This document shows positions 12,609 to 28,251 of a stretch of DNA of 32,693 nucleotides, one piece after another. Under the pieces are notes generated by a model. The model searched no databases. It worked only from the letters and a program-made list of their open reading frames with translations, and was not told where the DNA came from. Made by a program: the position numbers and the translations under genes. Every line of letters starts with the position of its first letter. The first letter of the stretch is position 1. The DNA is taken from contig JBFGZE010000028.1 of assembly GCA_041586955.1 (NCBI GenBank), positions 1-32,693 of the forward strand, read 5' to 3'. Origin of the DNA: Bacteriovoracaceae bacterium. GTDB lineage: Bacteria; Bdellovibrionota; Bacteriovoracia; Bacteriovoracales; Bacteriovoracaceae.

Positions 12609-13599
12609 GTATATTTCTTTAAATAAACATCTACATAATCAAGATATATTTTTACGGGATCAATTTGCTCTCGACATTTTAATGGGATTCTCCTCTCCTA
12701 CAAAATTCATTAGTTCAAAGTACTTTTATGATGATCTTGGAAGCCGGTTTTTCAATCAAATTGCCGATAGCCCGGAATATTATCTTACGGCCTGTGAGTT
12801 TGAGATACTACGCTCATATAAGCAAGACATTGCGAAACAATTAGGTCCAGGGGAGTTTAATTTAATAGAGTTAGGTGCTGGGGATGGAAGAAAAACAAAA
12901 GTCCTCATTGAGGAATTTCTTCGAAGTGGTCATAAGTTTGAATACCTTCCCATTGATATTTCTGAATCGGCCATTTTCTACCTCTCTGAAGAATTTGGTA
13001 CCGAACATCAAGATTTATCATTCTTCGGAATTATTTCGGAATATGAAGAGGGATTAAGATGGATCAAAGAAAATCGTGACGGTCGAAGCTTTGTCTGCTT
13101 TCTTGGATCGAATATCGGTAATTTTGATCATGTTAACTCTCTTGCCTTCTTACGCTCTATTTGGAATACACTAAAAGATGGTGACCTCATGCTTATTGGA
13201 TTCGATTTAAAAAAAGATATTGATATTCTACTCAGTGCCTACAACGATATCGAGGGGATTACTAAAGAATTTAATTTGAATCTTTTAACACGTATCAATA
13301 AAGAATTGGGCGGAGAATTTGACCTCTCTAAGTTTGATCACTTTGGAACCTATAATCCAAAGGTCGGAGCAATGGAAAGCTATCTTATATCGCTCAGTGA
13401 TCAAACCGTTTATATTAAAGAATTACAAAAACATTTTCATTTCCAAGAATATGAGCCCATTCATTTAGAATATTCTTATAAATATCTTCAGTCTGACGTT
13501 GAAACGTTGGCCAAAAGTACTGGTTTTAAAGTCATCGATAATTTATATGACTCACAAAAGTATTTTTGTGATTCACTTTGGCAGGTTATCAAACATTAA
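12601..13599 (+). CDS. egtD: L-histidine N-alpha-methyltransferase
   Basis: SKYFYDDLGS, PEYYLT, IELGAGDGRKT, FLGSNIGNF, AYND..GIT..FNLN and EYSYKY. Confidence 0.93.
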   Translation: MNEYISLNKHLHNQDIFLRDQFALDILMGFSSPTKFISSKYFYDDLGSRFFNQIADSPEYYLTACEFEILRSYKQDIAKQLGPGEFNLIELGAGDGRKTKVLIEEFLRSGHKFEYLPIDISESAIFYLSEEFGTEHQDLSFFGIISEYEEGLRWIKENRDGRSFVCFLGSNIGNFDHVNSLAFLRSIWNTLKDGDLMLIGFDLKKDIDILLSAYNDIEGITKEFNLNLLTRINKELGGEFDLSKFDHFGTYNPKVGAMESYLISLSDQTVYIKELQKHFHFQEYEPIHLEYSYKYLQSDVETLAKSTGFKVIDNLYDSQKYFCDSLWQVIKH

Positions 13600-13668: not shown

Positions 13669-16600
13669 TTATATAGCTTTTCCTTTTTGTAAAAATGAGT
13701 AAAGACACGGAATGAATAGCAGAGTAATGGTGGTGGAAAATGCCATTCCCCAGCCCATAACAAGCATCATCTCGGCCAACATGGAATCATATCCGGCAAG
13801 TCCATAGGCGGTAGGCAAAATGGCCACCACCGTGGTAATCGTCGTCACAACAACAGGGCGAAGGCGAGTCGACGCAGCTCTAGCAAGACCTTCTAAATAA
13901 TGCTCCCCAGGTGCTAATATATTTTTTTCAATTTTATCAATCATGATGATGGAATCATTGATCACCACTCCAATCATGCCAAGCGCCCCTACTGCCGCAA
14001 AAAAGCCATAAACACTCATTCCATGGGTGATAAGAACGATAATAGCACCGGCCAAACCAAAGGGTATTATTGATACAACTAGCAGTGGAGTAACCAAAGA
14101 ATTAAACATGATCACTAGAATTAGGTAAATTAAGATGATGACCAAAAGCAACGAATTGCGAAAATTGGAACGGGAGTCTCGTGAATCTTCAATCTCTCCT
14201 GTAAATCTCAAAATAGCACTCGGAAATTCTTTGTTAATTTTGGGAAAAATATTTTGTTCTAAGTCTTCCGCTATTTCGATGGGTGTTTTTTTTGTTTCAG
14301 GCCGCAGGTCGGCAAAAACCATCGTTGTTCTTTTATTATTAGTTCTTGCAATATTAGCCGGACGCATCACCTCTTCCATGGTAATGAATTTGTTTAAAAG
14401 AATCAGTTGTCCATTTTTATTAAGAACTTTAAGCTTTAAAAGACCTTTTAAATTTTTCTTATTCTCATCGGGTACCGTTAATCGCAACTCCACCTCTTCA
14501 TCACCTTTATTAATGGTATAAAGAGTTGATCCTTCCACAAAGGTGCGTAATGCCGTGGTCACAGATGAAGGATTGATATTAAGTCGTACCAATTTCGGTT
14601 GGTCTATTTTAAAAAGGTACTCCTTTTTAATGAGAGGCCTTTCCAGCTCGACATTATCAAGAGCTGGATTCTTTTCCATATGGTTCTTAATCATTTGAGT
14701 AATCTTACTGCGAATTTGGTCATTATTTTCTTGAACTTGTAATTCGATAGCACTTCCAGATCCACGCCCCCAACGACTTTTTAAAATCTTAACTTCTGTA
14801 AGGCCATTAATCTCTTTGCTCTTTTTTTCCCATTTCTCGCGCAATACCTTTAAAGATACATCTCTTTGATCAGCGGGAATAAGCTCTACTCTTATTCCGG
14901 CTTCATTTTCTTTAACTTCACCACCTCGGCGACTTTGACCGATTCTACTTCTCACGGCAACAATGCGACCGGGACCTTCATCCAGAAACATTTGTTCTAG
15001 GGGTGCAATGGCCTGGGCAGTTTCTAAACGTGACGCTCCTTGCTCGGCAAATGCCTTGACGTATATTTCTTTACTCTCTTCACGCGGGAACATAACAAAT
15101 TTCATCTTAGTGGCAAAAACATAACCACAACCAATAAGAACCGCGATGAAACCACAGATAATGATCAAGCGATGACGTAATAGGATCGCAAGTGTCTTGG
15201 CATAACTCGCCTCCCATTTATAAAACCAATTTCGATGGCCTCTCACCAGGTTATCTAAAATTGGTGTTTTTCCAGAAAGATGTGCCGGTAGAATAAAAAG
15301 AGATTCAATTAAACTTCCAAGTAACATAAATATCACCATCAAAGGGATATAAGATACGAATTTACCAAAATGACCTTCAAAAAAAAGAAGAGGAACAAAA
15401 GCGACACAGGTAGTAATAATACTCGCGAGAATGGGACGAAATACTTCTTGCGTGCCATCTATTGCCGCGGCAATTAATGTTTTTCCCTGGTTCACATGCC
15501 GAGAGATATTCTCGGCAATAATAATGGCATCATCAACGACGATTCCCATTACTATAATAATCCCGGCCAAAGTCATATTGTTGACAGTGTAGCCTGCTAA
15601 AAGAGCACATATAATGGTAAAAGCAAGTGAAAATGGAATTCCCATCGCTACCCAAAATCCTGATTTAATATCGAGAAAAATCATTAAAACAATAAGAATA
15701 AGTCCAAAACCAATTAACCCATTCCAATGAATAATAGATAGTCGGTTGGTAACATCAAATGATTCATCATCCATCAAATGTACTTTTATTGGCGAATCGA
15801 CATTCATTTGATTAAAGTGATTCACGAATCGAACAACCGCATCTCGTGCCGCTAAGATATCTGTCGAAACAGTTTTTTTGACATTCAATATTACAGCTTC
15901 ATGGCCATTAATTTTATGAATGGCATTAGCTCTTTCAAAACCATTGGAGATATCGGCTATTTTACTGAGCTTTAATAGAGGACCTTCATAGGAACCTTTT
16001 AAGGCGAGATCGTTAAGTGATTCCACAGTATCGAGTTCATGCAAGGCGGTGACCTTTGACTCTCCACGATCATTTAATGAACCTATGGGCGATCTAATAT
16101 GATTGGAGCGGATTTGGTTATAAATTTCCGTTATGGAGATTTCAAAGTTATCAAGCTCCCTCGGTCTTAAAAGAACCTGTAGTTCTGGCGCGAGGTAACC
16201 AGATTTTGAAACACTACTCACTTGCGGAAGAGATAATATTTGATTTTCAAAAGTAAGGGCGTACTGTTGCAGCTCTCTACGCCCACCAGCATCTAAAAAT
16301 TGATGTTCTCGATGCACTAAGGCGATATCAATAATCGCCTTTTCGCTCGAGCGAAACTGGTGAAATGTCGGAATTTTACGCACCTCTGTGGGTAAATTAG
16401 TTCGTAAAACTGCATCCTTTATATCTTGAATAACCTGCTGCTTGTTGGGTGCATTGGAATCGATAAAAATACGAAAGGAGCTACTCCCAAGACTTGAGGT
16501 GCTTTGTACCTCTTCAAGTCCGCTGACCGACTTTAGTTGTTCCTCAATGGGCTTAGTAATAAATAATTCGACGTCCGCAGCAGGGGCACCAGGATAATGA

Positions 16601-16752
16601 GTCACGACCCGGATCCAGTCCATGGCAAACTCTGGCATTTCTTCTTTTCCTATTCGCCACCATGCCAAGATGGAAAGCATAATAATGCCGAAAAAGAGAA
16701 CGTTTGTTAATAAGTGTTTTGTCGCAAAGTAGCGGATAAGTTTATTCATCAT
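13669..16752 (-). CDS. RND transporter permease subunit (AcrB/AcrD/AcrF family)
   Basis: 1027 aa with YPGA...VE..ITKPIE, TM4 GIVVDDAIIIAENI, TM10 GVVINDSI and RLRPVVVTT. Confidence 0.93.
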   Translation of the reverse strand: MMNKLIRYFATKHLLTNVLFFGIIMLSILAWWRIGKEEMPEFAMDWIRVVTHYPGAPAADVELFITKPIEEQLKSVSGLEEVQSTSSLGSSSFRIFIDSNAPNKQQVIQDIKDAVLRTNLPTEVRKIPTFHQFRSSEKAIIDIALVHREHQFLDAGGRRELQQYALTFENQILSLPQVSSVSKSGYLAPELQVLLRPRELDNFEISITEIYNQIRSNHIRSPIGSLNDRGESKVTALHELDTVESLNDLALKGSYEGPLLKLSKIADISNGFERANAIHKINGHEAVILNVKKTVSTDILAARDAVVRFVNHFNQMNVDSPIKVHLMDDESFDVTNRLSIIHWNGLIGFGLILIVLMIFLDIKSGFWVAMGIPFSLAFTIICALLAGYTVNNMTLAGIIIVMGIVVDDAIIIAENISRHVNQGKTLIAAAIDGTQEVFRPILASIITTCVAFVPLLFFEGHFGKFVSYIPLMVIFMLLGSLIESLFILPAHLSGKTPILDNLVRGHRNWFYKWEASYAKTLAILLRHRLIIICGFIAVLIGCGYVFATKMKFVMFPREESKEIYVKAFAEQGASRLETAQAIAPLEQMFLDEGPGRIVAVRSRIGQSRRGGEVKENEAGIRVELIPADQRDVSLKVLREKWEKKSKEINGLTEVKILKSRWGRGSGSAIELQVQENNDQIRSKITQMIKNHMEKNPALDNVELERPLIKKEYLFKIDQPKLVRLNINPSSVTTALRTFVEGSTLYTINKGDEEVELRLTVPDENKKNLKGLLKLKVLNKNGQLILLNKFITMEEVMRPANIARTNNKRTTMVFADLRPETKKTPIEIAEDLEQNIFPKINKEFPSAILRFTGEIEDSRDSRSNFRNSLLLVIILIYLILVIMFNSLVTPLLVVSIIPFGLAGAIIVLITHGMSVYGFFAAVGALGMIGVVINDSIIMIDKIEKNILAPGEHYLEGLARAASTRLRPVVVTTITTVVAILPTAYGLAGYDSMLAEMMLVMGWGMAFSTTITLLFIPCLYSFLQKGKAI

Positions 16753-16807
16753 TCAACTATAACTGCCATGATACGATCGTTCTAGCCTGAACAGTAAAAA
16801 ATTAAAC

Positions 16808-18259
16808 CTATAGAGATGTTAGTCTTTTTAGTTGACCAGACTTTTGCAGAAACCGGATAATAAAACGTTCGAGCGATATTTGTGATTTTTTATAATCAAT
16901 ATCTGTTTTTAACACTTCTTCATATTGAGTATTATAATCGTAAACAGATAAACTTCCCTGTTGTAGCTTCTTTTCATAAAAGCCAAGCTTCTCTTTAAGG
17001 AGACCGACCATCTTTTTATAGTTCATGACGATTTGCATTTGTTTTTTAATTTTTGCAACACCTTCTTTCAAATCAATTTCTTGCTCGAAGCGCGTTTTTT
17101 GTAACAATAATTTCTTTTGTTTCCAAAGAGCTTCCTTCATTAAACGTGACGATTTGGCCGCATAATTATGAACCGCTCGCTCCATAGTGAGTCCATAATT
17201 GGTTGTGGGAAATTGCCCCTCCCATACTTCTTTTTGCGCTAAACTATAGGTTTCTCGAACTCCGGCAAGTTTATAACTAGCACTCAAATCCATAGAGGGA
17301 AAGGAATCTCCTTTGGCCCAGGAAAATTCCCGCTTTGCTAAATTGACCTCTTCCATTCTTTTTTTCACTTCTGGGGAGTTATCGATTAGTTCTTTAAGGT
17401 CCCCCAGGCCTTTATCAATTTTTTTCCAATCTGAAACAAAGCCAAATTCTTTATCATATTTCCAAGGGTATTCTGTTTTTTGAAATAATTCTTGAGAAAT
17501 ATCTGCTGTAATTTTTTGAAATTTAATTTTTTGGTTTTCAAGCTTTTCTTGCGCTTTAAACAAATTAATTTGAGCATCGTTTTTTTGTATCAGAGATGCC
17601 TTTCCAAGAGAGAATTTCTTGACCATTAATTGAAATTTTTTTTCACCATTAATATAGGCCTGCTTTTTTAGATCCAATTGAAAAAGAGCATCCAATCCAT
17701 CGAGGTATTTTTCTATCAGTTTCACAATTAATTTACTTTGATCAATTTCGCTCTTCAATTGTCCCGTCCTGTCCTTCACAATGGCCTTATCATACTTTTT
17801 AGAGAAACGACCCCAATAAAAAAGATCTCTTAAGTCTTGCTCTAAGCTAAAGGTCAAAGATGGCTCGAAGGTTTTTTCAATACTACGAAATGTCGAGTTG
17901 GAATTGATAATATCAAGGCCATAAGGGACGCGAATAGTTGTTCCTGAGTAAAAGGACTTCGACATCGTTAGTCCATAACTTTGAGTTTTAGCAATAACTG
18001 AAGATGCGCCCCCGGCCCCGTCAAGAGACGAGCTACTGGGAGTGTTCGCTTTTGTATACCCTGCTTCTAAGCTGACATTAATATCAAATAATTCTGAGGC
18101 GCTAAGAACCTCTGAGCGACTGATATCAAGATCTAATTTCTTTTCTTGAAGCCCAAGGTTATTGCGACCAACGAGATCAAAAAAGACCTTTTTTGAGATA
18201 ATAAGCTCTTTTCCCAGAATACCCGAGAAAAACAAACAGAAAACACCAATAATATTCAT
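16808..18259 (-). CDS. TolC family outer membrane channel (paralogue 1)
   Basis: Two-fold repeat of helix / beta-hairpin / helix, with FPSMDLSASY and GKAS / GSLS turn motifs. The likely start is ATG 18259 (MNIIGVFCLFFSGILG signal peptide), not 18376. Confidence 0.8.
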   Translation of the reverse strand: MNIIGVFCLFFSGILGKELIISKKVFFDLVGRNNLGLQEKKLDLDISRSEVLSASELFDINVSLEAGYTKANTPSSSSLDGAGGASSVIAKTQSYGLTMSKSFYSGTTIRVPYGLDIINSNSTFRSIEKTFEPSLTFSLEQDLRDLFYWGRFSKKYDKAIVKDRTGQLKSEIDQSKLIVKLIEKYLDGLDALFQLDLKKQAYINGEKKFQLMVKKFSLGKASLIQKNDAQINLFKAQEKLENQKIKFQKITADISQELFQKTEYPWKYDKEFGFVSDWKKIDKGLGDLKELIDNSPEVKKRMEEVNLAKREFSWAKGDSFPSMDLSASYKLAGVRETYSLAQKEVWEGQFPTTNYGLTMERAVHNYAAKSSRLMKEALWKQKKLLLQKTRFEQEIDLKEGVAKIKKQMQIVMNYKKMVGLLKEKLGFYEKKLQQGSLSVYDYNTQYEEVLKTDIDYKKSQISLERFIIRFLQKSGQLKRLTSL

Positions 18260-18411
18260 AAGGCTACCTAGATCAGTTTTTAATATTCCTATTATCCTTC
18301 CATTAAAGTTCCTGCTCAAGGTAGAAATAACTGCGAAGCGCCCAAAAAACTCCCTTTTGAGGGAAAAAAAGATCATAAAAATCTAGTGAATTCCGACAAG
18401 AAACTATCATT

Positions 18412-20502
18412 ATGACAAATAAAAACTATCGAAAATACCCCGCTTTGCGGGATGACCTTAAGATATCTAAGATGAAGACTTCTGGCTCGATTCATTATGT
18501 GGTCAAAGACCCATTAAAAGAGCAATATTATCGCTTTAGTGAAGAAGAATGGCTGGTTATAGACTATTTCAGGGGATCAAAAACTCTAGAAGAGATAATG
18601 GCCCAGTTTAATTCAGACCATCAAGATATGGAAATCGACCTAGAGTCCGTTGAAGGCTATTGGAATCACTTGGATTCAATCAATATTCTACAAAAATCTC
18701 AAAAAGAAATGAATGTCATGCTCGTAGAGAAGATGAAAGAGATGCGCCAAAGTCAACTCCTGGCCAAAAAAGGAAGTCTCTTTTATAAACGTTTCCCGAT
18801 AATTGATCCCGACAAATTATTTGATAAGATCATTCCCTATATTGGATGGATTTGGAGCCTCCCTTTTTTTATCTTTTCATTTTCAATAATGATTACCGCT
18901 GTCATCATTATTTTAACCCATTGGACTGAATTCAATCAGGGTGTTTACGAAATCTTCAGCTTTTCAGAAATGTCAGCAGCTCATTTAATTACATTATGGG
19001 TTGTTATCTATGGAACAATTGCCCTGCACGAAGTTGGTCACGGTTTAACATGCAAATACTATGGTGGAGAAGTCCATGAAATAGGTTTTTTACTGCTCTT
19101 TTTTCAGCCTTGCCTATATTGTAACGTTAATGATGCCTGGCTATTTGATAAAAAGTGGAAACAAATATTGGTCACGCTGGCCGGTGGTTATATCGAATTC
19201 TTTATTGGTTCTATTTGCGCAATAATTTGGCTCATTACAAGTCCAAATACATTCATTAATGTCATCAGTATGCAAATCATGACTATTTGCTCGCTTTCAA
19301 CCGTATGCTTTAATTTTAATCCAATGATGAAGCTCGATGGCTATTACCTTTTATCAGACCTAGTCGAAGTCCCCAACCTTAAGGATGATTCGCTGGCGTA
19401 TTTAAAACACACTGTCGCTACTAAAATATTTCGAATGCCTGGCGAAAAATTCTATGCCACCAAAAGAGAAAAGCGTGTTTATCTTGTCTATGGAGTATGT
19501 AGCTTTATTTATATGACACTTTTATTGACAGGCCTTGTCGCCATGGCCAAAGGTATATTAGTCGATAGTTTTCACGAAATCGGTATTCTAATCACAGGTT
19601 TTATAGCCTATAAAATATTTGGTGGCCATGTCACAAAAAGTGGGTCTTTTATGCTGAAATTCTTTATCCAAAAAAGAAAATTCTTTAAATCCCCCAAATT
19701 TAAATTGGCCTTTGCAACAGCGATGGTGGGCCTAGTTATAACTCTCATTTTACCCATCCATTTTAAGCTTTATGGAAAATGTTTTTTAAATCCGCAAGCA
19801 ACCATTATAATGAGAACGATTGTCGACGGCCAAATCGAGAAGTTCTTTCTTAATGATGGCGAAATGATCAAATCGAGAGAAAATCTCTTTAAAATTAAAA
19901 ATGAAACAGTACCAATTAATCGCAAGATGGCCTCAACAGAGGTGAAGAAGCAGGAGTTAATGTTAAGAAAAACGCTTGTCCAAAATAAACGAAAATACCA
20001 AGAAGTAAAAAAGGAATTATTGTCTAAACAAATGACCCTTAAAGAACGAATTGCTGAAGAGACGGCATTAATCTACCGCTCACCAGAAATCTCGGGCCTA
20101 AATATGTTCTCTTGCCCTGATATCTATCAAAAGCTTGGAAGTTTTATTAACAAAGGTGATGAAATCTGCTCTATTCAAAAGATTGATGCCATGAAAACAA
20201 TTATTGAAATTAATGAAGCGCAAATAAGGTTTCTCCGAGCTGACCAAAAGGTAATTTTTAAATTATCATCCAACCCTGTTAAAAGTTATACTGGTAAAAT
20301 CAGCGAAATTCTACCTACCGGTAAGAACGATCCCAAAAACCCCCAGCGGAAAATATATAATGCGGTTCTAGAAATCAATAATCCAGGAGAATTACGCCCA
20401 GGAATGGAAGGCGTAGCAAAAGTTTATGGCATAGAAATGAGCATCTTTAAATATTTAATAGCAAAACTAACATCAACGTTAAGACTAGATTTATTTTATT
20501 AG
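18412..20502 (+). CDS. Fusion of a PqqD/RRE-like domain, an M50 (site-2) metalloprotease and a HlyD-type membrane fusion domain
   Basis: N-terminal P.LRDDL...YVVKDP...YYRF...GSKTLEEI, then HEVGH, LAGG and NFNPMMKLDGYY in a multi-TM region, and a C-terminal DGQIEKFFLNDG...LRPGMEG adaptor domain. Confidence 0.88.
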   Translation: MTNKNYRKYPALRDDLKISKMKTSGSIHYVVKDPLKEQYYRFSEEEWLVIDYFRGSKTLEEIMAQFNSDHQDMEIDLESVEGYWNHLDSINILQKSQKEMNVMLVEKMKEMRQSQLLAKKGSLFYKRFPIIDPDKLFDKIIPYIGWIWSLPFFIFSFSIMITAVIIILTHWTEFNQGVYEIFSFSEMSAAHLITLWVVIYGTIALHEVGHGLTCKYYGGEVHEIGFLLLFFQPCLYCNVNDAWLFDKKWKQILVTLAGGYIEFFIGSICAIIWLITSPNTFINVISMQIMTICSLSTVCFNFNPMMKLDGYYLLSDLVEVPNLKDDSLAYLKHTVATKIFRMPGEKFYATKREKRVYLVYGVCSFIYMTLLLTGLVAMAKGILVDSFHEIGILITGFIAYKIFGGHVTKSGSFMLKFFIQKRKFFKSPKFKLAFATAMVGLVITLILPIHFKLYGKCFLNPQATIIMRTIVDGQIEKFFLNDGEMIKSRENLFKIKNETVPINRKMASTEVKKQELMLRKTLVQNKRKYQEVKKELLSKQMTLKERIAEETALIYRSPEISGLNMFSCPDIYQKLGSFINKGDEICSIQKIDAMKTIIEINEAQIRFLRADQKVIFKLSSNPVKSYTGKISEILPTGKNDPKNPQRKIYNAVLEINNPGELRPGMEGVAKVYGIEMSIFKYLIAKLTSTLRLDLFY

Positions 20503-20510
20503 GATACGAT

Positions 20511-21251
20511 ATGAAAACAATTATTGCAGCTCTCTTTTCTATTTTAAATATTCAGGCAACGACAATTGGTATATTGCAAGGGAAAAAAGAAATCATTGTC
20601 TCTAGCAAAACCCAGGGAGAGATTAGAGAGATCCACTTCACTGAGGGAACCAAGGTTAAAGAGGGTGATATTATTTTATCTATTGATAATCAAAAGGAAA
20701 CAATAGAATATGAATTGGCCAAGAATGACTTTGATTCTGCGAAAGAGGATTATAATAAATCCAAAAAACTTAAAAAATACCTCTCGGGTGAGGAATTAAC
20801 AAAGAAGAGAAATTTATACCTTTCTAAGAAAGCGTCTTTTGAGCTAAAAGAATACGCTTTAAAAACAAAAGAAATTAAAACCCCGATAGATGGTATCCTC
20901 TCAAAGATCTTTCTTAAAGAAGGTGAAAATGTTGGTAGCGGAAAAGAGGCATTTGAAGTTATCTGGCCCGACAACCTTATCATTGACCTTGACATCAATG
21001 CCAAAAAGGCCCAGACCCTTGCGCTAGGCCAAGAAGTTTTATTTAACAGAGAAATTGACGATGGCGAGTTCAAGGCCAAAATTACCTTTGTTGGTAAAAC
21101 CGTAGATAAGGCATCTGGAACGATACATATTATTTTAGAATTAGATAATCCCCTTAAGGAGGACGGTAGTTATACCCTCACACCAGGGGAAATGGTTAAA
21201 ATACATTTCAAAGAAAAAGACTCTCAAAAGACAGTCATGACCAACAATTGA
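20511..21251 (+). CDS. Stand-alone periplasmic adaptor (membrane fusion protein) with a short signal peptide
   Basis: GEIREIHFTEGTKVKEGD, IKTPIDG, VDKASGT and LTPGEMV. Starts 8 nt after the M50 fusion gene. Confidence 0.88.
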   Translation: MKTIIAALFSILNIQATTIGILQGKKEIIVSSKTQGEIREIHFTEGTKVKEGDIILSIDNQKETIEYELAKNDFDSAKEDYNKSKKLKKYLSGEELTKKRNLYLSKKASFELKEYALKTKEIKTPIDGILSKIFLKEGENVGSGKEAFEVIWPDNLIIDLDINAKKAQTLALGQEVLFNREIDDGEFKAKITFVGKTVDKASGTIHIILELDNPLKEDGSYTLTPGEMVKIHFKEKDSQKTVMTNN

Positions 21252-23779
21252 TGAATCTTATCTAAAATAATTTTCCCAATTACGCGACTTCCTGTATAAA
21301 TTTTACCTCGGCCTGTCATTCCAGGTCGTAAAATACTGGCATCGCCATCCTTCGTTGTAATAATCGCTCGGGCCAAATAATAGGTTGTAGGGTCCGTTTC
21401 CAATAATTGTGTCGCCTCACCTCCTACCGAATTTAATTTAAAATCCTCAAAACTAACCGTAGGGTGACCAAAAACTTTGAATTTTACCGATTGATCCGAT
21501 TTTACGTGAATGATATTTTCTTGAGGCACCTCAAACTGGGCCAACATCTTTTCTTTGGAGGCAACCTTAATAATCTCCTTTCCATAAGTGACCGGAGTCC
21601 CCATCAACTCATGTAAATTCTCAGAGATAACGATCCCCTCTTCTTTCGCTCTAATAATAGAGCTATCAATCTTTTTTTCAAGAATAGTCATTTCATGAAT
21701 TAAGGATAATAATTCTTTTTCCTTAATTTTGTATTCAGCTATTTTCCGTTCATTCTTTAGCTTAAGCATCTCTACTCGAGTTTTCTCACGTGTTGATTCT
21801 TTCTGCTGGAGTTCGATAACAGAATCAGTAACATCTATTTCGGCCAGGATCTTTCCCTTCTCAACAAACTCTCCTTCCTTAACAAATACGTTTTTGACAA
21901 CGCCATTACTGAAAGAATAATAAGTATTAGTCAAAGGGATAATTTGAACAGACGTATTCACATTATAAGGAACCTTAACAATTGTAATGAGTAAGGACGC
22001 GGTGATTAGCCCTCCAACCAATTTAAGTATTTTTTTTAGCCCCCAATCTTTTATATTATAGAGTTTGGCAATTAATTCATCTTTAAGGTTAGTGAAATAC
22101 TGCCCACTAGGAATTGAATGATAGAGATCAACATTACGCAAAGAAACGGTTGTTTGAGTTGTTAAAATGCCTAATATTTCTTCGGTATTTGATGTCACCA
22201 AACCAGAATCGTCAGACTCGATATGGATGATACCAACTGGACCTTGATCATCCTTAAGTAATTTTATCCATATACTTTTGAGTTCATGGTCTTCCATATA
22301 TTTTTTTACAAACTCATGATCTGATACAAACTCATAAGCTTCACGATTATCAACATAGAGTTCATCCATTTCAAGCTTCAAAAACTGATTATGAATGATA
22401 TCAATATTCTTCTGCTCTTTATTGTCAAAATCAATTTCTTTTTCACCACTAATGGCGCGAAGTAAAACACAATCATCTCTCTTCATCTTCATGGTTGAAA
22501 CCGCCATAAGATCAAAAGGGATGAGCTCTCCTGATAAATTGACCAGAGAGACAAGCACACTATCTAAATCAAGTGTTGAGGTAATTTCTCGTCCAATATC
22601 AATAAGCGCGGTGAGATCTTTTGCCTTTTTTTCTGAGGCAAATAAGCGAGCATTTTTAATATACATTGCACTTGAACCGGCAAATAAATTAAGAAGTTCA
22701 AGGTCTTCCTCATTAAATAATGGAGCTGCCCCTGCTTTATTAAGGATTTGAATGGCGCCAATACATTCACCTTTAACAATAAATGGAGAGCAGATCATAG
22801 ACTTTGAGATAAAATTAGTTTTTTGATCAACCGCTCTCGAAAAATGGTCATCAAGTGAACAGTCTTCAATGATATGGGCCTCTTTTGACTCAATAACTGA
22901 TCCAATTATTCCTGTGCCTTTCTTAAGTTTAACCCCTTCAACCATATTTTTTGTTGGCCCATGGGCGTATTGACAGACATAACCTTCTTTTGAGTCTTCG
23001 ACCAGCCAGACTGAACCAACTTCAGCTCCCACTAAATGAATCGCTTTTTGCAAAACTAATGGCAGGAGTTTATCAATATCCATAGTTGAACTAAATAATT
23101 CATGCAATTCTGAGAAGGTTTGCATTCTTTTGAGAAGTCCATCCTGTTTTTTTAATGTTCTTCTAGTCTTAATATGCATAGCAACAGTCGTTGCCAGATC
23201 TTCTAAAAAAAACTTATCGGAATCTGAAAATGATTCGCTGACATTGATTTTATTCACCGTTTGGATAACACCCACAACTTCATTGGCATAGATTAAGGGA
23301 CATGATATTAGCGATTTTGTATTTGATTTCTTTTTATTAAAAAATCGTTGATCGGTACTCGTATCATAGACAATTGCCGACTTTTTATTCTCAGCACTCC
23401 AGCCGACAATCCCCTCACCGATTTTAAGGCTTAGCCCTTTGAGTTGAGAGGCCCCTGGGCCATGTGCGACTTTTAAATGAAGAAGATCCTCTTCAATGAT
23501 CCACAATGATCCACCTTCGGCCTCAACACCTTGACACACAATTTCAAGGAGTCCTTTCATCATATTAAAAAGACTGAGTGAGTTATTTTGGTAAAATTCA
23601 TTAATACGATGATAGCACGCGAGTTTTTTATCGGATAAGCTATCACTTTGGATCTCATTTTTTAAATGAAGACTTATAGGATTAACGGCGGTAACACCTT
23701 CTAGGACTTTAAATTTATTTTTTTCCTCTTCTCCTTTAACCACGACATCTTTCTTTTTAAAGCGAAACTTTAAGGCCAT
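21224..23779 (-). CDS. Three GAF domains, a TM helix and a HlyD-type membrane fusion domain
   Basis: GAF repeats (GEGIVGW...SLISCPL..VGVIQTVNK; GTGIIG...SMICSPF..IGAIQILNK; a divergent third), a TM segment, then GVVKNVFVKEGEFVEKG...LRPGMTGRGKI. Confidence 0.88.
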   Translation of the reverse strand: MALKFRFKKKDVVVKGEEEKNKFKVLEGVTAVNPISLHLKNEIQSDSLSDKKLACYHRINEFYQNNSLSLFNMMKGLLEIVCQGVEAEGGSLWIIEEDLLHLKVAHGPGASQLKGLSLKIGEGIVGWSAENKKSAIVYDTSTDQRFFNKKKSNTKSLISCPLIYANEVVGVIQTVNKINVSESFSDSDKFFLEDLATTVAMHIKTRRTLKKQDGLLKRMQTFSELHELFSSTMDIDKLLPLVLQKAIHLVGAEVGSVWLVEDSKEGYVCQYAHGPTKNMVEGVKLKKGTGIIGSVIESKEAHIIEDCSLDDHFSRAVDQKTNFISKSMICSPFIVKGECIGAIQILNKAGAAPLFNEEDLELLNLFAGSSAMYIKNARLFASEKKAKDLTALIDIGREITSTLDLDSVLVSLVNLSGELIPFDLMAVSTMKMKRDDCVLLRAISGEKEIDFDNKEQKNIDIIHNQFLKLEMDELYVDNREAYEFVSDHEFVKKYMEDHELKSIWIKLLKDDQGPVGIIHIESDDSGLVTSNTEEILGILTTQTTVSLRNVDLYHSIPSGQYFTNLKDELIAKLYNIKDWGLKKILKLVGGLITASLLITIVKVPYNVNTSVQIIPLTNTYYSFSNGVVKNVFVKEGEFVEKGKILAEIDVTDSVIELQQKESTREKTRVEMLKLKNERKIAEYKIKEKELLSLIHEMTILEKKIDSSIIRAKEEGIVISENLHELMGTPVTYGKEIIKVASKEKMLAQFEVPQENIIHVKSDQSVKFKVFGHPTVSFEDFKLNSVGGEATQLLETDPTTYYLARAIITTKDGDASILRPGMTGRGKIYTGSRVIGKIILDKIHQLLVMTVF

Positions 23780-23794
23780 TATTACCTCTATCCT

Positions 23795-25189
23795 TTATAT
23801 CGAAATGAGACCGCTAAGGTCTGCCAATTCTAGCTTTTGTTTAAATTTTTCATAAATAATTTGAAATAACTCTAACTCTACTTTTTCTAATTCTGTTATT
23901 TTTTTCTTTAATTCGAAGAAAGAGATTCGGCCCAAACTATAGAGCTTCTTCTTGCCATTAAAATTTACCTTTTCGAGCCTTAATCTTTTACGGAGCAATA
24001 GACTTTTAGTCTCAATATTAGAAAGCTCCCGTTTAATAGCATCCTTCTTGCTTAATTTCTCGTAATCATGTTTTTTTAATTGTATCAACTTCTGATTATA
24101 CCTAGCTAGCTCGGATGTCTTTTCCCTAATCCCAAAAAGTGCCTCTAAGCTGGTTGAAAAATTGATCGATATGGACCATTCGGGGTTCGTAAACTGAAAA
24201 CCGTTGGTAAACTCTCTAGTTAACTTTTTAGAAACGCTCGATGAGAGCGCGGACATCTCAAGGTCTAATTTTACCTGGTTATTTTCGCTTTCCTTTAGTC
24301 GATCAATCTTTAAATCGCTCAATTCTGACAAAACAAGTTGTCTTTTATAATCACGTGGTTTTAATTTTAATACGAGATCGTCAATATTGACTGATGGAAT
24401 GCGCCCCTCTGGCAATTGAATTGTGTTATTCGTTATACGCTTAAGAAGGTACAACTCCTTTAGGTATTTTAAATTAAGCGTCTCGATATTGACGTGAACT
24501 TTTTGAATTTCAATTTTATTTTCTAACCAATCAATCTGCCCTTCATGACCGCTTCTCTTTTTCGCCAATGTTTGTTTAAGTAGCCCCTCGTAATACTTCA
24601 AGGTCTTTAACTTTAATATTTTTTTCTGTCTTAAAAGGTAGACTTCGGCGAATGAAAGATAAGCTTCCTTTAATCTTTCTGCTAATTCTATTTTTAATTT
24701 CAAATCAGCTCTTTTTTTCTTAATGTCATTTTTGTAATAATTTTCGTGATTCGAGAACTTTTCATTTCTCATTAGAGGGTAAGTCATAATGCTTTTAAAG
24801 GCGGTGGTATAATAGCGCGGGCCAATAGCATTGATTGAATTTGAATGGGTCTCTAAAGTTTGCCACGATGTTTCAACCTCCAGGCCACTCAAAAATTTTT
24901 TAGTAAATCCTAGGCTGAGACCACTACTTTTTTCTTGGACCACGCTTAAATCAAGTGATGAATTAGAAAATGACTTTTCCTTTTCATAAAGCCCACTAAA
25001 AAAGATATTCCAATCAATAGAATGATCCTTAGCAATTGATTCATATTCATTGATTTTTACATTTTGTTTTTCTAATTGAATATTAGTGTTGTTTTCTAAG
25101 AGTAAAAGTTTTAATTCTTGTAGCCCCATTGGTCGACAATAAATCGTGTTTATGAAACTTAAAAAAATAAGAAATTTGAGTATAAACAT
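23795..25189 (-). CDS. TolC family outer membrane channel (paralogue 2)
   Basis: Signal peptide, 464 aa, TolC-like alternation of helices and strands, and LYSLGRISFFEL. Local similarity to paralogue 1. Confidence 0.75.
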   Translation of the reverse strand: MFILKFLIFLSFINTIYCRPMGLQELKLLLLENNTNIQLEKQNVKINEYESIAKDHSIDWNIFFSGLYEKEKSFSNSSLDLSVVQEKSSGLSLGFTKKFLSGLEVETSWQTLETHSNSINAIGPRYYTTAFKSIMTYPLMRNEKFSNHENYYKNDIKKKRADLKLKIELAERLKEAYLSFAEVYLLRQKKILKLKTLKYYEGLLKQTLAKKRSGHEGQIDWLENKIEIQKVHVNIETLNLKYLKELYLLKRITNNTIQLPEGRIPSVNIDDLVLKLKPRDYKRQLVLSELSDLKIDRLKESENNQVKLDLEMSALSSSVSKKLTREFTNGFQFTNPEWSISINFSTSLEALFGIREKTSELARYNQKLIQLKKHDYEKLSKKDAIKRELSNIETKSLLLRKRLRLEKVNFNGKKKLYSLGRISFFELKKKITELEKVELELFQIIYEKFKQKLELADLSGLISI

Positions 25190-25200
25190 TTATGTTTCCA

Positions 25201-25232
25201 AAAAAAAAGGGCAGGGAAAACCCCGCCCTTTC
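25201..25232 (-). terminator. Intrinsic terminator after the acidic repeat protein gene
   Basis: The minus strand reads AAAGGGCGGGG-TTTT-CCCTGCCC followed by T8, 10 nt after the stop. Confidence 0.88.
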
Positions 25233-25242
25233 ATTATACTCT

Positions 25243-28200
25243 TTAACTAGCTTGCTGATACGTACCGTCAACTTCTTCCCCTGCCGGGTGTCCACCGTCA
25301 TGATCTAAGAAGTCAGCTGACTCTGAAGAGATCACGAAAGAACCGTCATCGAAGTATTGTGTATCTTCAGGAAGGTCAATGGAAAATTGTCCTTCAGGGC
25401 CAATACTGATCGGTTCAGGTGCCATTTCATTTAAGGCGGCATTAGAGACATGCAACGAATGTCCCTCCTCATTATACTCTACGCCCTCAGGAATATGCGC
25501 ATGAAGAGTTCCTTCTGCGTCAATATGATACTCTATATCCTGTGGCATATCAGTCAGCTCATAAGAGCCGGCCGGGATATCAATAGTTCCCAATTCTGCA
25601 TTAAATGTAGCATCTTCAGGAATCTTAATATCAGCAGTTCCATCGGCATTCAAAGTAAAGTCTTCAGGAATCAAATCGCCACCCAATTCTTGCATGGCCA
25701 TATCTGCACTCATCTCAACTGTACCTGTGGCAGGATCAACATTAATTCCTTCAGGAGGAGTAATGGTAACAGATCCATCTGGGTTATCATTGACCCATTC
25801 TGGACCTTGCTCAACATAATCCATTCCAGGGTTTTCAATAAAATCGGCCGAACACTCAGGAATATTGGCGCCACCATCATCAAAATAATGCGTGTCATGC
25901 GGCAGATCAACTATAACAGAACCGTCATACTCCATAGTAATGGCATCAGGAGTCATTGCATTGGTCCAATAATGATCAAAATGAACACTACCTTCCTCAG
26001 CATTAAAATCCATCCCCTCTTGAAGATTGATACTAATAGTACCATCATCGTTAAGAGTCGCATCCATTTCAGCTGGAATTTCATCCATATGCATCTCCCC
26101 TGCAGGGAAAGTCAATGAATTAGAGGCAGCATCAAATGCCGTTCCTGCTGGAACCTGGGCGGTAATCGTCCCATCCTCATGAAGTGTTATATCATCAGGA
26201 ATATATTCTTCAAAATGCTCATTAACAAATTCGCTGTTCATTTCCATTTGACCGGCTTCAGCGTTAAACTCAAGTCCCTCTTGTGGAACAATGGCAACTG
26301 AACCATCTGGATTAACATTAACGAAGTCTGGGCCTTCAGTTACATACTCAGGAGCAGGGTTCTCAAGAAAGTCCGCTTGGTACTCAGGAACAGTAAATGA
26401 ACCATCATCATGAAATTGAGTGTCTTGAGGAAGATCAACCACAAGGTTACCTTCCGCTGTCACTTCAATAGGATCAGGTGTCAATTCATTAGTCCAATAA
26501 TTATCAAAGTGAACTTGACCAGCATCACCATCATAATTCATACCATCTTGAAGTGTGATCGTAATTGTACCATCAGCATTCACTTCAGGGTTAAAGTTTT
26601 CAGGAACCTCTGCCACATTCATTTCACCTTCTGGGAAGATTATAGCATTGGCTTCAGTGTCATATTGAGTTCCCTCTGGAAGATCGACATTCATCGTCCC
26701 GTCTGCATTGAAATGAATTTCTTCAGGCACGGGAATATGCTCGTCAATCATTTCATTGGGAATTGTCGCTTCACCAGCTTCTGCGTTAACTTCGATTCCT
26801 TCAGGAGGAGTAAAAGTATACTCACCCTCTGGGCCTACTTCTGAAAACTCAACATCATGAACAAAGTCAGGTTGCTCCGCTTCAATAAAGTCAACATGGT
26901 CGGCCGGAACGGTGAAAGAACCATCGTCAAAATACTCTGTTCCCTCTGGAAGAGCAATATTCACATTCCCCTCTGCGGTGATTTGCACGCTGTCGGGGGT
27001 AATTTCATTGGTCCAGTAATTATCCATATGAACAGAACCCGTATCCGGATTAAAATCCATCCCCTCTTGTAGCATAACTGTGGTTGTACCATCTGGGTTA
27101 ATATGGGCATCAACACCCTCAGGAACTTCATCAAGATTAATTTCACCTTCTGGCAAAACAACACCATTAATATCAGCATCGTATTGGGCCCCCTCAGGAA
27201 GAGGAATCTCAGAAGTACCATCGGCATTAATTTGTAAATCAGTTTGCTCTGAAAATGTTTCATTAAAAACTTCAGCATCCATGGTGGCAATTCCACCATC
27301 AACTTCAATTCCCTCTGGTGGTTCAAAAGTCACAGCACCATCTGGAGCAGTTTCAGTGAACTCAAGATCATTGATTATTTCTGGAGCTGGATTATCCATT
27401 TGACCTGCGGCCTCAGCAGAAATTTGGATTTGACCATCGTTATATTCAACACCATCTTGTGGTAATTGTACTTCAACACTACCGTCTAGGGAGATTTCGA
27501 CGTTTTCAGGAGTTATTTCATTCGCCCAATAATTGTCGACTTCAACTGACATATTTTCCATGTCAACTTCTATCCCCTGATCGGGAAGATTGACCATAAT
27601 AGACCCATCAGCATTTGGATAAGCTTCTAGTTCATTGGGAACTTCTTCTAAATTAATTTCCCCTTCAGGAAACATTAATTGATTGGAGGCCTCTAAGTAT
27701 TGAGTCCCTTCAGGCAAAGGCATTTCCATCCCCCCCTCTGGAGTAATCTCAACACCTTCTGGAAGTGGTAATTCTTCATTGGCCACCTCAATCGGAAAGT
27801 TGGCGGTTCCAGCATCAGGGTCAACAGTGACACCCTCTGGAGGTGTTGCCGAAAAAGATCCATCTGCTTGCGCCTCAACCCAATCCGGCTCAGACCAACC
27901 TTCGTGCTGGCCCATATCGCCTTCAGGAGCGTCATTATGAAACTCGTCAACTTCTTCTGATAATGTTTCATCTTGTTGCTCATACTCAGATTCAGGGGCG
28001 TCTTGTTCAAACATTTCACCCTGATGGGCCTGTGCCTCATCCAAGTATTGTCCTTCTTGGCCTTCAGGAGCTTGATCAAAAGACTCAGTTGAAGTTTGTT
28101 GAATTTCTTCCTGACCAGCTTGATCAGTGGTATCAGCATCAACGGCATCAACCATACCAGGATCAACCAGGCCGCCGCCGACCATTCCTGGTGCAATACG

Positions 28201-28251
28201 ATCTTCTAATTTCTTCGACTGAATTTTTTTCATAGATTTTTTCTTTGTCAT
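25243..28251 (-). CDS. Large hyper-acidic repeat protein with a basic KKLEDRIAP leader; putative exported cargo
   Basis: AAGGGAG ribosome-binding site, 1002-aa ORF with five ~172-176-aa repeats, its own terminator, and no hydrophobic signal peptide. Confidence 0.85.
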   Translation of the reverse strand: MTKKKSMKKIQSKKLEDRIAPGMVGGGLVDPGMVDAVDADTTDQAGQEEIQQTSTESFDQAPEGQEGQYLDEAQAHQGEMFEQDAPESEYEQQDETLSEEVDEFHNDAPEGDMGQHEGWSEPDWVEAQADGSFSATPPEGVTVDPDAGTANFPIEVANEELPLPEGVEITPEGGMEMPLPEGTQYLEASNQLMFPEGEINLEEVPNELEAYPNADGSIMVNLPDQGIEVDMENMSVEVDNYWANEITPENVEISLDGSVEVQLPQDGVEYNDGQIQISAEAAGQMDNPAPEIINDLEFTETAPDGAVTFEPPEGIEVDGGIATMDAEVFNETFSEQTDLQINADGTSEIPLPEGAQYDADINGVVLPEGEINLDEVPEGVDAHINPDGTTTVMLQEGMDFNPDTGSVHMDNYWTNEITPDSVQITAEGNVNIALPEGTEYFDDGSFTVPADHVDFIEAEQPDFVHDVEFSEVGPEGEYTFTPPEGIEVNAEAGEATIPNEMIDEHIPVPEEIHFNADGTMNVDLPEGTQYDTEANAIIFPEGEMNVAEVPENFNPEVNADGTITITLQDGMNYDGDAGQVHFDNYWTNELTPDPIEVTAEGNLVVDLPQDTQFHDDGSFTVPEYQADFLENPAPEYVTEGPDFVNVNPDGSVAIVPQEGLEFNAEAGQMEMNSEFVNEHFEEYIPDDITLHEDGTITAQVPAGTAFDAASNSLTFPAGEMHMDEIPAEMDATLNDDGTISINLQEGMDFNAEEGSVHFDHYWTNAMTPDAITMEYDGSVIVDLPHDTHYFDDGGANIPECSADFIENPGMDYVEQGPEWVNDNPDGSVTITPPEGINVDPATGTVEMSADMAMQELGGDLIPEDFTLNADGTADIKIPEDATFNAELGTIDIPAGSYELTDMPQDIEYHIDAEGTLHAHIPEGVEYNEEGHSLHVSNAALNEMAPEPISIGPEGQFSIDLPEDTQYFDDGSFVISSESADFLDHDGGHPAGEEVDGTYQQAS

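Follow-up and report, generated by a model that had tools for sequence, protein, structure and literature searches.

A candidate leader-guided export and maturation cassette built around an M50 protease-adaptor fusion in a Bacteriovoracaceae bacterium

We analysed a 32,693-nucleotide stretch of DNA from a Bacteriovoracaceae bacterium (GenBank assembly GCA_041586955.1, contig JBFGZE010000028.1, positions 1 to 32,693; hereafter the window) and propose that six of its genes, at 16808-28251, form a cassette that exports and matures, under the guidance of a leader, one of their own products, a hyper-acidic repeat protein of 1002 residues that we call the cargo. We put the probability of this reading at roughly 0.6. 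The other five genes encode two TolC-family outer-membrane factors (OMFs) and three membrane-fusion proteins (MFPs, or adaptors) of the HlyD type, one of which is fused to an M50 metalloprotease and to an N-terminal domain resembling the RRE, the leader-binding element of enzymes that make peptides which are ribosomally synthesised and then modified after translation (RiPPs). The proposal draws on the recurrence of the six genes as a unit, on a conserved motif that closes the cargo leader and also marks proteins beside related machinery, and on a structural model in which the leader lies across the RRE-like domain and the protease site.

Results

Six genes recur together

The cassette holds genes for TolC-1, the RRE-M50-HlyD fusion, a plain HlyD, a GAF-GAF-HlyD adaptor, TolC-2 and the cargo, with the following features (basis of each assignment in brackets).

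16808-18376, minus strand: TolC-1, here OMF1, a TolC-family outer-membrane factor (PF02321, E-value 3e-16)
18412-20502, plus strand: RRE-M50-HlyD fusion, 696 residues (PF02163 and HlyD_3; Pfam, NCBIfam)
19027-19041, plus strand: HEVGH, zinc-binding and catalytic motif of M50 (translation)
19312-19341, plus strand: NFNPMMKLDG, second M50 signature, with the third zinc ligand Asp309 (translation)
20511-21251, plus strand: plain HlyD, 246 residues, one N-terminal anchor helix (TIGR01730, 109 bits against a cut-off of 94.9)
21224-23779, minus strand: adaptor of 851 residues, GAF-GAF-(190 unassigned residues)-transmembrane helix-HlyD (Pfam GAF and HlyD; hydropathy)
23795-25189, minus strand: TolC-2, here OMF2, second divergent TolC-family factor, 464 residues (hhalign, profile against PDB)
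25205-25232, minus strand: terminator-like hairpin, 12-bp stem containing 7 G-C pairs and followed by a run of T (consensus scan, pattern match)
25243-28251, minus strand: cargo, hyper-acidic repeat protein, 1002 residues (composition; no Pfam or NCBIfam family)
28171-28251, minus strand: N-terminal leader of the cargo, MTKKKSMKKIQSKKLEDRIAPGMVGGG (8 Lys/Arg; hydrophobic core absent)
28189-28209, minus strand: LEDRIAP motif closing the leader (translation)

The original prediction, made from the letters of the window, had listed these genes, and a listing of open reading frames (ORFs) together with Pfam and NCBIfam recovered all of them where it had placed them. Its two TolC genes and three MFPs were likewise found, by Pfam, NCBIfam, hhalign and a profile match to the PDB.

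To set the limits of the unit, the window was compared all against all with nine Bdellovibrionota loci and a Planctomycetota locus (L016). Exactly these six genes were common to the set, no flanking gene was, and gene order varied from locus to locus. In the Bdellovibrionota set of nine, where contig edges cut several loci short, a cargo homologue was present in eight, as were an OMF1 orthologue adjoining the M50-HlyD gene and a plain HlyD orthologue; OMF2 and GAF-HlyD orthologues were each present in seven. Locus L016 also has the cargo homologue and the GAF-HlyD, so the cargo stays with the machinery, as had been predicted. That the six genes recur together in other genomes indicates that their arrangement is not due to chance. 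Forty relatives were sampled (24 from the family, 1 from the order and 15 from the phylum) and the cassette was found in none; since it is missing there and moves as a unit with changing flanks, it appears to behave as a mobile, self-contained unit.

The assembly (3.46 Mb, 88% complete) contains a single M50-HlyD gene. Relatives of its product number at least 590 in species-representative genomes, and the best 80 were taken with 10-kb flanks for the neighbourhood counts given below; clustered at 50% identity (E <= 1e-30), the family comprises 5,826 representatives from many phyla. A metagenome scan with the M50-HlyD protein returned one irrelevant match of 31 residues.

An acidic cargo with a basic leader

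The cargo has an isoelectric point of 4.05, a net charge of -226 and about five repeats of about 175 residues. Positions 1-27 account for eight of its nine Lys/Arg residues; the remaining 975 residues (28-1002) contain 1 Lys/Arg, 233 Asp/Glu and 1 Cys. Its combined Lys and Arg content (K+R) is the lowest of the 1441 ORFs of at least 300 residues in the genome, for which the median is 12%. The original prediction of a large repeat protein lacking a Sec signal was borne out: the N-terminus has neither a hydrophobic core nor a twin arginine, and over the first 70 residues no 12-residue stretch exceeds a hydropathy of 1.14. Pfam and NCBIfam gave sub-threshold noise alone, RTX and HemolysinCabind models had no match at E <= 10, and a search of the ESM Atlas with repeat residues 290-650 gave no usable match.

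Cargo homologues in the related loci are 831-2079 residues long, and all have a Lys-rich start followed by KLE[DE]RIAPxMxGG. Across 13 loci including the window, the motif heads proteins of 600-2079 residues that are repeat-rich and conserved over their whole length. At the other end, the C-terminus of the cargo (window 25243-25420) shares with its homologues the pattern F(V/T)(I/V)(S/P)xExADF(L/M), the "SxESADFL" stretch, which in the homologues is followed by a His/Gln/Gly-rich tail often ending in AA.

The leader is modelled across the RRE-like domain and the M50 site

Residues 1-95 of the fusion protein are RRE-like and predicted to be cytoplasmic, residues ~135-446 form the M50 core with 6-7 predicted helices, and residues 447-696 form a periplasmic membrane-fusion domain. 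In 16 M50-HlyD sequences from several phyla, H206, E207 and H210 (HExxH) are invariant, as are N301, N303, P304, K307, D309 and G310 (NxxPxxxxDG). The best family matches of residues 30-398 are RiPP leader peptidases: the daptide leader peptidase model NF041824 (E 8e-48; 163.5 bits, under the cut-off of 300) and the YydH/LiaK model NF058609 (E 5e-14; 52.6 bits, under the cut-off of 225). In an AlphaFold2 model of the whole protein (mean predicted local distance difference test, pLDDT, 80), a beta3-alpha3 unit at the N-terminus is followed by a helical membrane core and then by a C-terminal part, for which MacA/MexA adaptors are matches at E 1e-11. When residues 1-130 were modelled alone (pLDDT 82.5), residues 1-95 again formed the beta3-alpha3 unit, and its best PDB matches in Foldseek were RRE domains with template-modelling (TM) scores of 0.62-0.76. 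They include 5v1u, in which TbiB1 is bound to its leader peptide (E 1e-2, TM 0.72), and 6jx3, a lasso B1 protein with its leader (TM 0.76), as well as PqqD (5sxy), TigE, sactipeptide synthases and cyanobactin heterocyclases. The RRE label that the original prediction had put on the M50 fusion is thus supported by the ranking of folds, with weak E-values, and the M50 motifs are intact in all 16 sequences.

The same prediction had the M50 fusion recognise and cleave the cargo. We modelled residues 1-430 of the fusion (16-row alignment) together with residues 1-45 of the cargo (13-row alignment), and the leader was placed across both the RRE-like domain and the active site with a complex score of 0.67 (0.65-0.69 in three runs) against 0.01 for the best control. 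In calibration, 116 of 157 solved complexes attained the score mark, as did 2 of 215 mismatched pairs. The runs had at least 85% of their contacts in common, with a partner pLDDT of at least 56. On the leader side the modelled interface spans residues 4-26, which contact strand 38-43 and helix 71-86 of the RRE; the leader also touches the zinc-site residues 203/206/207/210, the invariant stretch 227-243 (YCNVNDAW) and residues 300-312. The model supports binding of the leader to the RRE-like domain and the M50 site.

A shared leader motif and several classes of putative substrate

We aligned the N-termini of 13 large cargos from Bdellovibrionota, Planctomycetota, SAR324 and three Gammaproteobacteria, in which L15, E16, R18, I19, A20, P21, G25 and G26 are invariant. 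A six-frame scan of the 80 loci with the pattern LE[DEQNS]R[IVLATNSE][ATLVNS]P gave 60 matches in 37 loci from more than 8 phyla, while the reversed sequences used as control gave 1. Co-occurrence of homologous loci with LExR-leader proteins, which the original prediction had implied, is therefore seen in 37/80 loci. In every class of protein the motif stands at the end of a conserved leader-like part and before a variable part, the position expected for an element beside a processing site.

Four classes can be told apart. The first comprises large, very acidic proteins like that of the window, with Tcp10_C repeats in Alteromonadaceae and Thalassomonas. The second, in Gemmatimonadota, comprises 1-5 tandem peptides (mostly at least 2) of about 45-60 residues beside GAF-HlyD, HlyD and M50-HlyD genes; their front part is conserved (VRIELTxEQKKxIKxATGKDAxAxELxxEELEERIAP) and followed by a variable tail of 3-11 residues (LMF, LRI, IMLG, MRMKY and others). 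Loci of this class are L026, L034, L046, L048, L049, L053, L059, L062, L066, L073 and L074, with examples at L059:10256-12543 and L066:6558-6949. Their sequence suggests that these ~50-residue peptides are precursors from which very short peptides, perhaps signals, are exported. In the third class, from metagenome-assembled genomes (MAGs) of Acidobacteriota, Deltaproteobacteria, Limnocylindrales and Verrucomicrobiota, MKxxLxIEELEQRIAP precedes 24-69 low-complexity residues. The fourth carries LDTLEDRxxP on large proteins of Planctomycetes. The two glycines after the motif (G25/G26) are invariant in the 13 large leaders; the Gemmatimonadota peptides end 3-11 residues past RIAP and have no GG.

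None of 31 motif peptides matched Pfam or NCBIfam at the curated cut-off. Weak matches to RiPP leader models were seen for NF033737 (E 0.04-0.08, three peptides) and NF038399 (E 0.009, two peptides). The curated tag model NF012209 (LEPR-8K; cut-off 17 bits) had no match in the genome of the window at E <= 1, the cargo included, and matched 0/14 cargo N-termini at E <= 10. Since no Pfam or NCBIfam model tested covers the leader, LE[DE]RIAP substrates are currently unannotated. A literature search returned nothing relevant on the motif strings and two incidental mentions of LEPR-XLL in print. The strict motif has five six-frame matches in the genome of the window, of which the cargo alone is a real long ORF; the other four were rejected as a second leader-bearing protein because they are not.

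No ABC transporter, C39 peptidase or SecA at the locus

The original prediction had noted that the window lacks an ABC ATPase, a C39 peptidase and SecA, and each of these absences held. No ABC signature was found in any frame of the window and no Walker A motif in its ORFs of at least 100 residues, and none of 20 window proteins matched ABC_tran in Pfam. The C39 peptidase model PF03412 had no match at E <= 0.01 anywhere in the 88%-complete assembly. Neighbours of the 18412-20502 homologues were tabulated in the 80 loci: GAF-MFP, MFP, TolC and LExR proteins recur, a SecA-like ORF occurs in 0/80 within ~10 kb (phmmer, E <= 1e-3), an RND permease in 0/80, and ABC-like motifs in 2/80, both more than 7 kb away. 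The same SecA query does pick up shortened SecA_DEAD proteins, those from two Planctomycetes with an E-value of 6e-150. Pfam searches of 105 ORFs from seven diverse loci found no SecA_DEAD, ABC_tran, ACR_tran or peptide-modifying enzyme.

Elsewhere in the genome of the window, PF07517 finds one canonical SecA (853-residue frame) and one sub-threshold match of 17 bits. The flanks of the short SecA genes in Kolteria and in a Gemmatales MAG contain no cassette genes. Two Oligoflexia MAGs (G043 and G044, the sources of L009 and L013) each have two full-length, canonical-looking SecA genes (864-887-residue frames) on different contigs, which could be a real duplication or contamination of the bins.

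Lysine and arginine content separates SecA-less from SecA-bearing cassettes

Sister cassettes that do include a short SecA offer a comparison of the proteins encoded beside them.

SecA-less cassettes, large cargos (tail of at least 580 residues), n = 13: K+R 0-2.1%, D+E ~15-27%
SecA-bearing cassettes, large adjoining ORFs, n = 6: K+R 3.2-8.4%, D+E 7.5-14.5%

The K+R ranges do not overlap. Lys/Arg counts in the SecA-less set are as low as 0 in 1451 residues (Thalassomonas), 1 in 1463 (a Planctomycetota MAG), 1 in 1184 (Alteromonadaceae) and 1 in 981 (the window cargo), and a short SecA was missing from 12 of the 13 genomes with such K/R-poor cargos.

One Psychromonadaceae genome (G053) holds both forms and is a natural pair for comparing them. 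Its SecA-less locus (L023) encodes a cargo of 605 residues with the LEDRIAP tag and 3 Lys/Arg in 582 residues. Its SecA-bearing cassette (L103:1-19628, L104:574-2589) runs giant ORF, HlyD, OMF, x-HlyD, M50-HlyD, short SecA (671 residues); the giant ORF, of at least 4090 residues, has the tag LEALEERILLSADPLL (LEERILL) and 8.4% K+R. Among 300 sampled genomes of the class to which this one belongs, 6 including G053 have a short SecA. In the five other short-SecA loci x-HlyD, M50-HlyD and SecA stand in a row (5/5), followed in 3/5 by a plain HlyD (L108, L109, L110), and the large adjoining ORFs have 3.2-7.5% K+R. A Gemmatales cargo (L040) has 5.3% K+R, and the short SecA of that genome is unlinked.

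Outer-membrane factors, the sensor adaptor and the flanking permease

OMF1 probably starts at Met40 (~18259), which opens a signal-peptide-like stretch, and phmmer found no paralogue of it in the genome. By Pfam alone OMF2 is an OEP match of E 0.075. Its profile (8 sequences) aligns with the OMF1 profile over 477 columns (hhalign probability 100%, E 7e-45) and with solved TolC (2wmz) at E 3.8e-8; we therefore take it as a second, divergent TolC. In the GAF-HlyD adaptor, Pfam confirms a GAF domain at residues 73-203 and another at 234-371, and hydropathy gives one transmembrane helix (residues 583-601), with the N-terminal sensor domains predicted to be cytoplasmic. The original prediction had given this protein three GAF domains; two of them stand, while the region of the third (residues 385-575) has no Pfam match at E <= 1. 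In Kolteria novifilia (L078:7652-9550) and a Gemmatales MAG (L042:7707-9785) the plain adaptor is fused to a WD40 beta-propeller (HlyD_D23 + WD40, 632-692 residues).

Next to OMF1 the window has one further transport gene.

13669-16752, minus strand: RND permease, flanking gene 3' of OMF1 (PF00873, E 1e-145)

It sits downstream of OMF1, 55 bp away and on that gene's strand, and no adaptor gene accompanies it. The original prediction had drawn it into the span of the export system, but it is shared with none of 10 related cassettes, nor does it occur in the 80 loci (phmmer, E <= 1e-3). Because it is missing from all 10 related loci, we place the permease outside the conserved cassette. RND pumps normally need an adaptor, and adaptor-less OMF-RND pairs are unusual. 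The genome of the window has four pairs without an adjacent membrane-fusion gene, on contigs C41, C49 and C99 and at window 13669-18376; the other three lie at L101:4684-8969, L100:1227-5779 and L102:3-4547, a MarR gene precedes one pair and a TetR gene follows one, and one classical OMF-MFP-RND operon was seen on contig C11. With three other such pairs the layout is a habit of this genome. Taken together with the orthology of OMF1 to the OMF1 of other cassettes and its lack of paralogues, this suggests that the permease is probably a lineage-specific pump that borrows OMF1.

Other features of the window

Directly upstream of the RND gene, at 11316-13599, lies an ergothioneine pair: an EgtB-like gene (DinB_2 + FGE-sulfatase) and an EgtD-like gene (Methyltransf_33, E 5e-95) that overlap by 8 bp. 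Three window ORFs have no Pfam or NCBIfam family: 29497-30927 (476 residues; a faint PSCyt2 match, E 0.09), 10248-11066 (272 residues) and 3654-4364 (236 residues). Promoter-like sites in the window are as frequent as in shuffled sequence (46 against 44.7 expected). The terminator-like hairpin comes straight after the cargo stop codon and ahead of OMF2, a layout often seen with highly expressed precursor genes. The sequencing runs listed comprise four of DNA, all from one marine metagenome study, and none of RNA.

Discussion

A possible mechanism

Under the reading that we prefer, the newly synthesised substrate would carry, while still in the cytoplasm, a lysine-rich leader whose ~21-27 residues close with LEDRIAP. 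On the cytoplasmic side, the RRE-like domain of the fusion would capture this leader by strand addition, and LEDRIAP would be laid along the YCNVNDAW strand into the HExxH/NPxxxxDG zinc site, where the M50 protease would remove the leader. The unfolded chain could then pass an inner-membrane portal made of the M50 membrane domains, enter a periplasmic tube of the three HlyD paralogues docked to the TolC ducts, and leave the cell in one step. The cytoplasmic GAF domains might gate the machine on a small-ligand signal. Cleavage, export, stoichiometry, gating and the source of energy are all parts of the scheme that we infer.

As to energy, we offer a tentative and rather doubtful extension, namely secretion in one step with no ATPase, in which the adaptors form the conduit and the membrane potential (inside negative) electrophoreses the polyanion outward, aided by folding outside. 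What prompts it is the nature of the mature cargo, a polyanion with hardly any Lys or Arg. Basic residues oppose the crossing of an inside-negative membrane, so their near-total loss is what would be expected if the potential does the work. The presence of SecA where cargos are ordinary fits this idea.

Several points weigh against the proposal. Part of the complex score may stem from RRE-leader complexes already solved, which the model may have memorised, and the custom alignments used in the run lie outside the calibration of the tool. No RRE fold match reached E <= 0.001 (best 1e-2); what supports the RRE assignment is the consistency with which such folds rank first, not significance. The motif is missing from 43/80 loci, many of them short contigs or from Planctomycetes. 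We know of no M50 protease that serves as a protein-conducting channel. ABC exporters are encoded elsewhere in the genome (about five of 480-590 residues; six ABC_membrane matches on four contigs), and with an assembly 88% complete a motor unlinked to the cassette is possible. As to the Lys/Arg comparison, the 13 SecA-less cargos represent about three independent families, and 5/6 of the SecA-bearing "cargos" were called by size and adjacency, their N-termini lying outside the DNA fetched. Small motif peptides in Acidobacteriota (L041, L045) are Lys-rich, so that depletion of Lys and Arg does not extend to every substrate.

Alternative explanations

The cassette and its leader recognition might be as we propose while translocation is driven by an ATPase encoded elsewhere, either an ABC exporter or the housekeeping SecA, in a system like type I secretion with its motor split off. 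We regard this as possible, though on balance unlikely. Every characterised MFP-TolC protein exporter that we know of is driven by an ABC transporter, and the genome of the window, incompletely assembled, has its six ABC_membrane matches. A short SecA_DEAD ATPase is carried by sister cassettes, both in the available portion of PMC4452313 and in G053 and the five other short-SecA loci, and it is unlinked in Planctomycetes. Against it, SecA-like genes are absent beside the machinery (0/80 within ~10 kb) and ABC motifs rare (2/80); nor was a short SecA found in 12/13 genomes with K/R-poor cargos, and six genes that move as a unit and are missing from 40 sampled relatives argue for a self-sufficient mobile unit.

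The adjoining RND permease could instead be a proton-driven engine here, acting through the plain HlyD and OMF1. Its position 55 bp from OMF1 on the same strand, its want of an adaptor gene and the score of the plain HlyD above the RND_mfp cut-off would all suit such a role, which is nevertheless very unlikely: the permease is found in 0/10 related cassettes and 0/80 loci, three other adaptor-less OMF-RND pairs exist in the genome, and RND pumps take their substrates from the periplasm or the membrane and not as 1000-residue cytoplasmic proteins. It is also improbable, if slightly less so, that the cassette exports no protein at all and serves M50 signalling proteolysis or a RiPP-like maturation of small peptides with export of a small product. 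The resemblance of the M50 half to the RiPP leader peptidases NF041824 and NF058609 points in that direction, as does the Gemmatimonadota machinery beside tandem ~50-residue peptides with tails of 3-11 residues; yet the conserved six-gene set holds no modification enzyme, the motif sits on conserved, repeat-rich proteins of 600-2079 residues in the window and 12 other loci, and two TolC proteins with three adaptors would be a heavy investment for a signalling protease. That the repeat protein stands beside the machinery by chance and leaves the cell by another route has no direct evidence in its favour, apart from a cargo that belongs to no recognised family, and we consider it the least credible of these explanations, given an adjacency kept in 8/9 Bdellovibrionota loci and L016 despite rearrangements, a cargo with neither a Sec nor a Tat signal, and a modelled leader-protease interface that is specific.

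Relation to known systems

The core of the module has been known since 2015 from comparative genomics. Kamneva, Poudel and Ward (2015, PLoS One; PMC4452313) describe, in the portion of their paper available, a conserved locus of a secondary SecA_DEAD, Peptidase_M50/HlyD, GAF/HlyD and HlyD, with or without OEP, as a patchy, laterally spread module of unknown function. In their proposal SecA_DEAD would act as the ATPase and the M50 protein might serve as a pore; that portion mentions no cargo, nor any leader motif. Their modules as described there always include SecA_DEAD because the survey started from secondary SecA_DEAD genes. Common to those modules and ours are M50-HlyD, GAF-HlyD and plain HlyD together, a TolC that sometimes adjoins, and the lack of an ABC transporter; unlike the modules described in that portion, ours has no SecA_DEAD, two TolC genes and a substrate with an LEDRIAP leader. 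Judged by sequence, the clade around the window is a SecA-less form of that module. Our literature search found no experimental work on the module, and no paper on the leader motif or on M50-HlyD fusions as exporters beyond that of 2015. A term search of the accessible text of a review of type I secretion systems (PMC8277102) gave no relevant M50, GAF or SecA_DEAD passage, and a preprint (10.64898/2026.03.19.712371), in the part available, treats giant Chlorobium proteins beside TolC/SapC as type I cargo and there mentions no M50 protease.

Type I secretion (HlyB-HlyD-TolC; LapBCE, which serves giant adhesins) shares with the cassette an envelope-spanning design of MFP and TolC, here with three HlyD-domain proteins and two OMFs, substrates that are acidic, repeat-rich, Cys-poor and devoid of a Sec signal, and a presumed one-step transport of unfolded protein. 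The cassette differs in having no ABC transporter, three adaptors in place of one, a protease fused to one of them, no RTX nonapeptide repeats, and a conserved signal-like element that is N-terminal and probably cleaved, where type I substrates have an uncleaved signal at the C-terminus, often along with RTX repeats. In RND tripartite efflux pumps the permease belongs with its adaptor and OMF, whereas here it is not conserved with them (0/10, 0/80).

Peptidase-containing ABC transporters (PCATs) such as CvaB-CvaA-TolC recognise and cut an N-terminal leader within the export machine, with an MFP and TolC as exit. Their double-glycine leader, LSxxELxxIxGG, resembles the ..ELxxEELEERIAP of the small peptides. 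In contrast to PCATs, the cassette has an M50 metalloprotease with an RRE-like domain and not C39, no nucleotide-binding domain, and substrates of up to 2000 residues. With the M50 RiPP leader peptidases (NF041824, NF058609), which are the best matches of fusion residues 30-398, it has in common the RRE-like N-terminus, the catalytic motifs and some small leader peptides; unlike them, the fusion scores below their cut-offs, is joined to a periplasmic adaptor, is accompanied by no modification enzymes and has a 1002-residue substrate. The LEPR-XLL/LEPR-8K tag (NF012209) is likewise a short L-E-x-R motif, found at the N-terminus of large proteins that have no signal and adjoin M50-HlyD cassettes, but the motif here is LE[DE]RIAP followed by GG, its cassettes are SecA-less, its cargos K/R-free, and the model does not match it.

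New in this work are a form of the cassette with six genes, two of them for TolC proteins, and no SecA; a leader variant, LE[DE]RIAP, that escapes the curated tag model; a putative substrate range that now takes in peptides of ~50 residues; the controlled leader-protease model; and the Lys/Arg contrast.

Significance

If a leader-binding membrane protease has taken the place of the motor, these cassettes would constitute a major unassigned secretion route present in many phyla. The locus described here is a compact test case, with six genes, one identifiable substrate, a leader of ~21-27 residues and no SecA. The Lys/Arg contrast supplies a falsifiable hypothesis for ATP-free crossing of the inner membrane, along with a sequence rule that predicts substrates. 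Were it true, sister cassettes whose giant proteins contain Lys and Arg in ordinary amounts would have recruited a shortened SecA motor, and the same machinery acting on ~50-residue precursors would release peptides of 3-11 residues in Gemmatimonadota.

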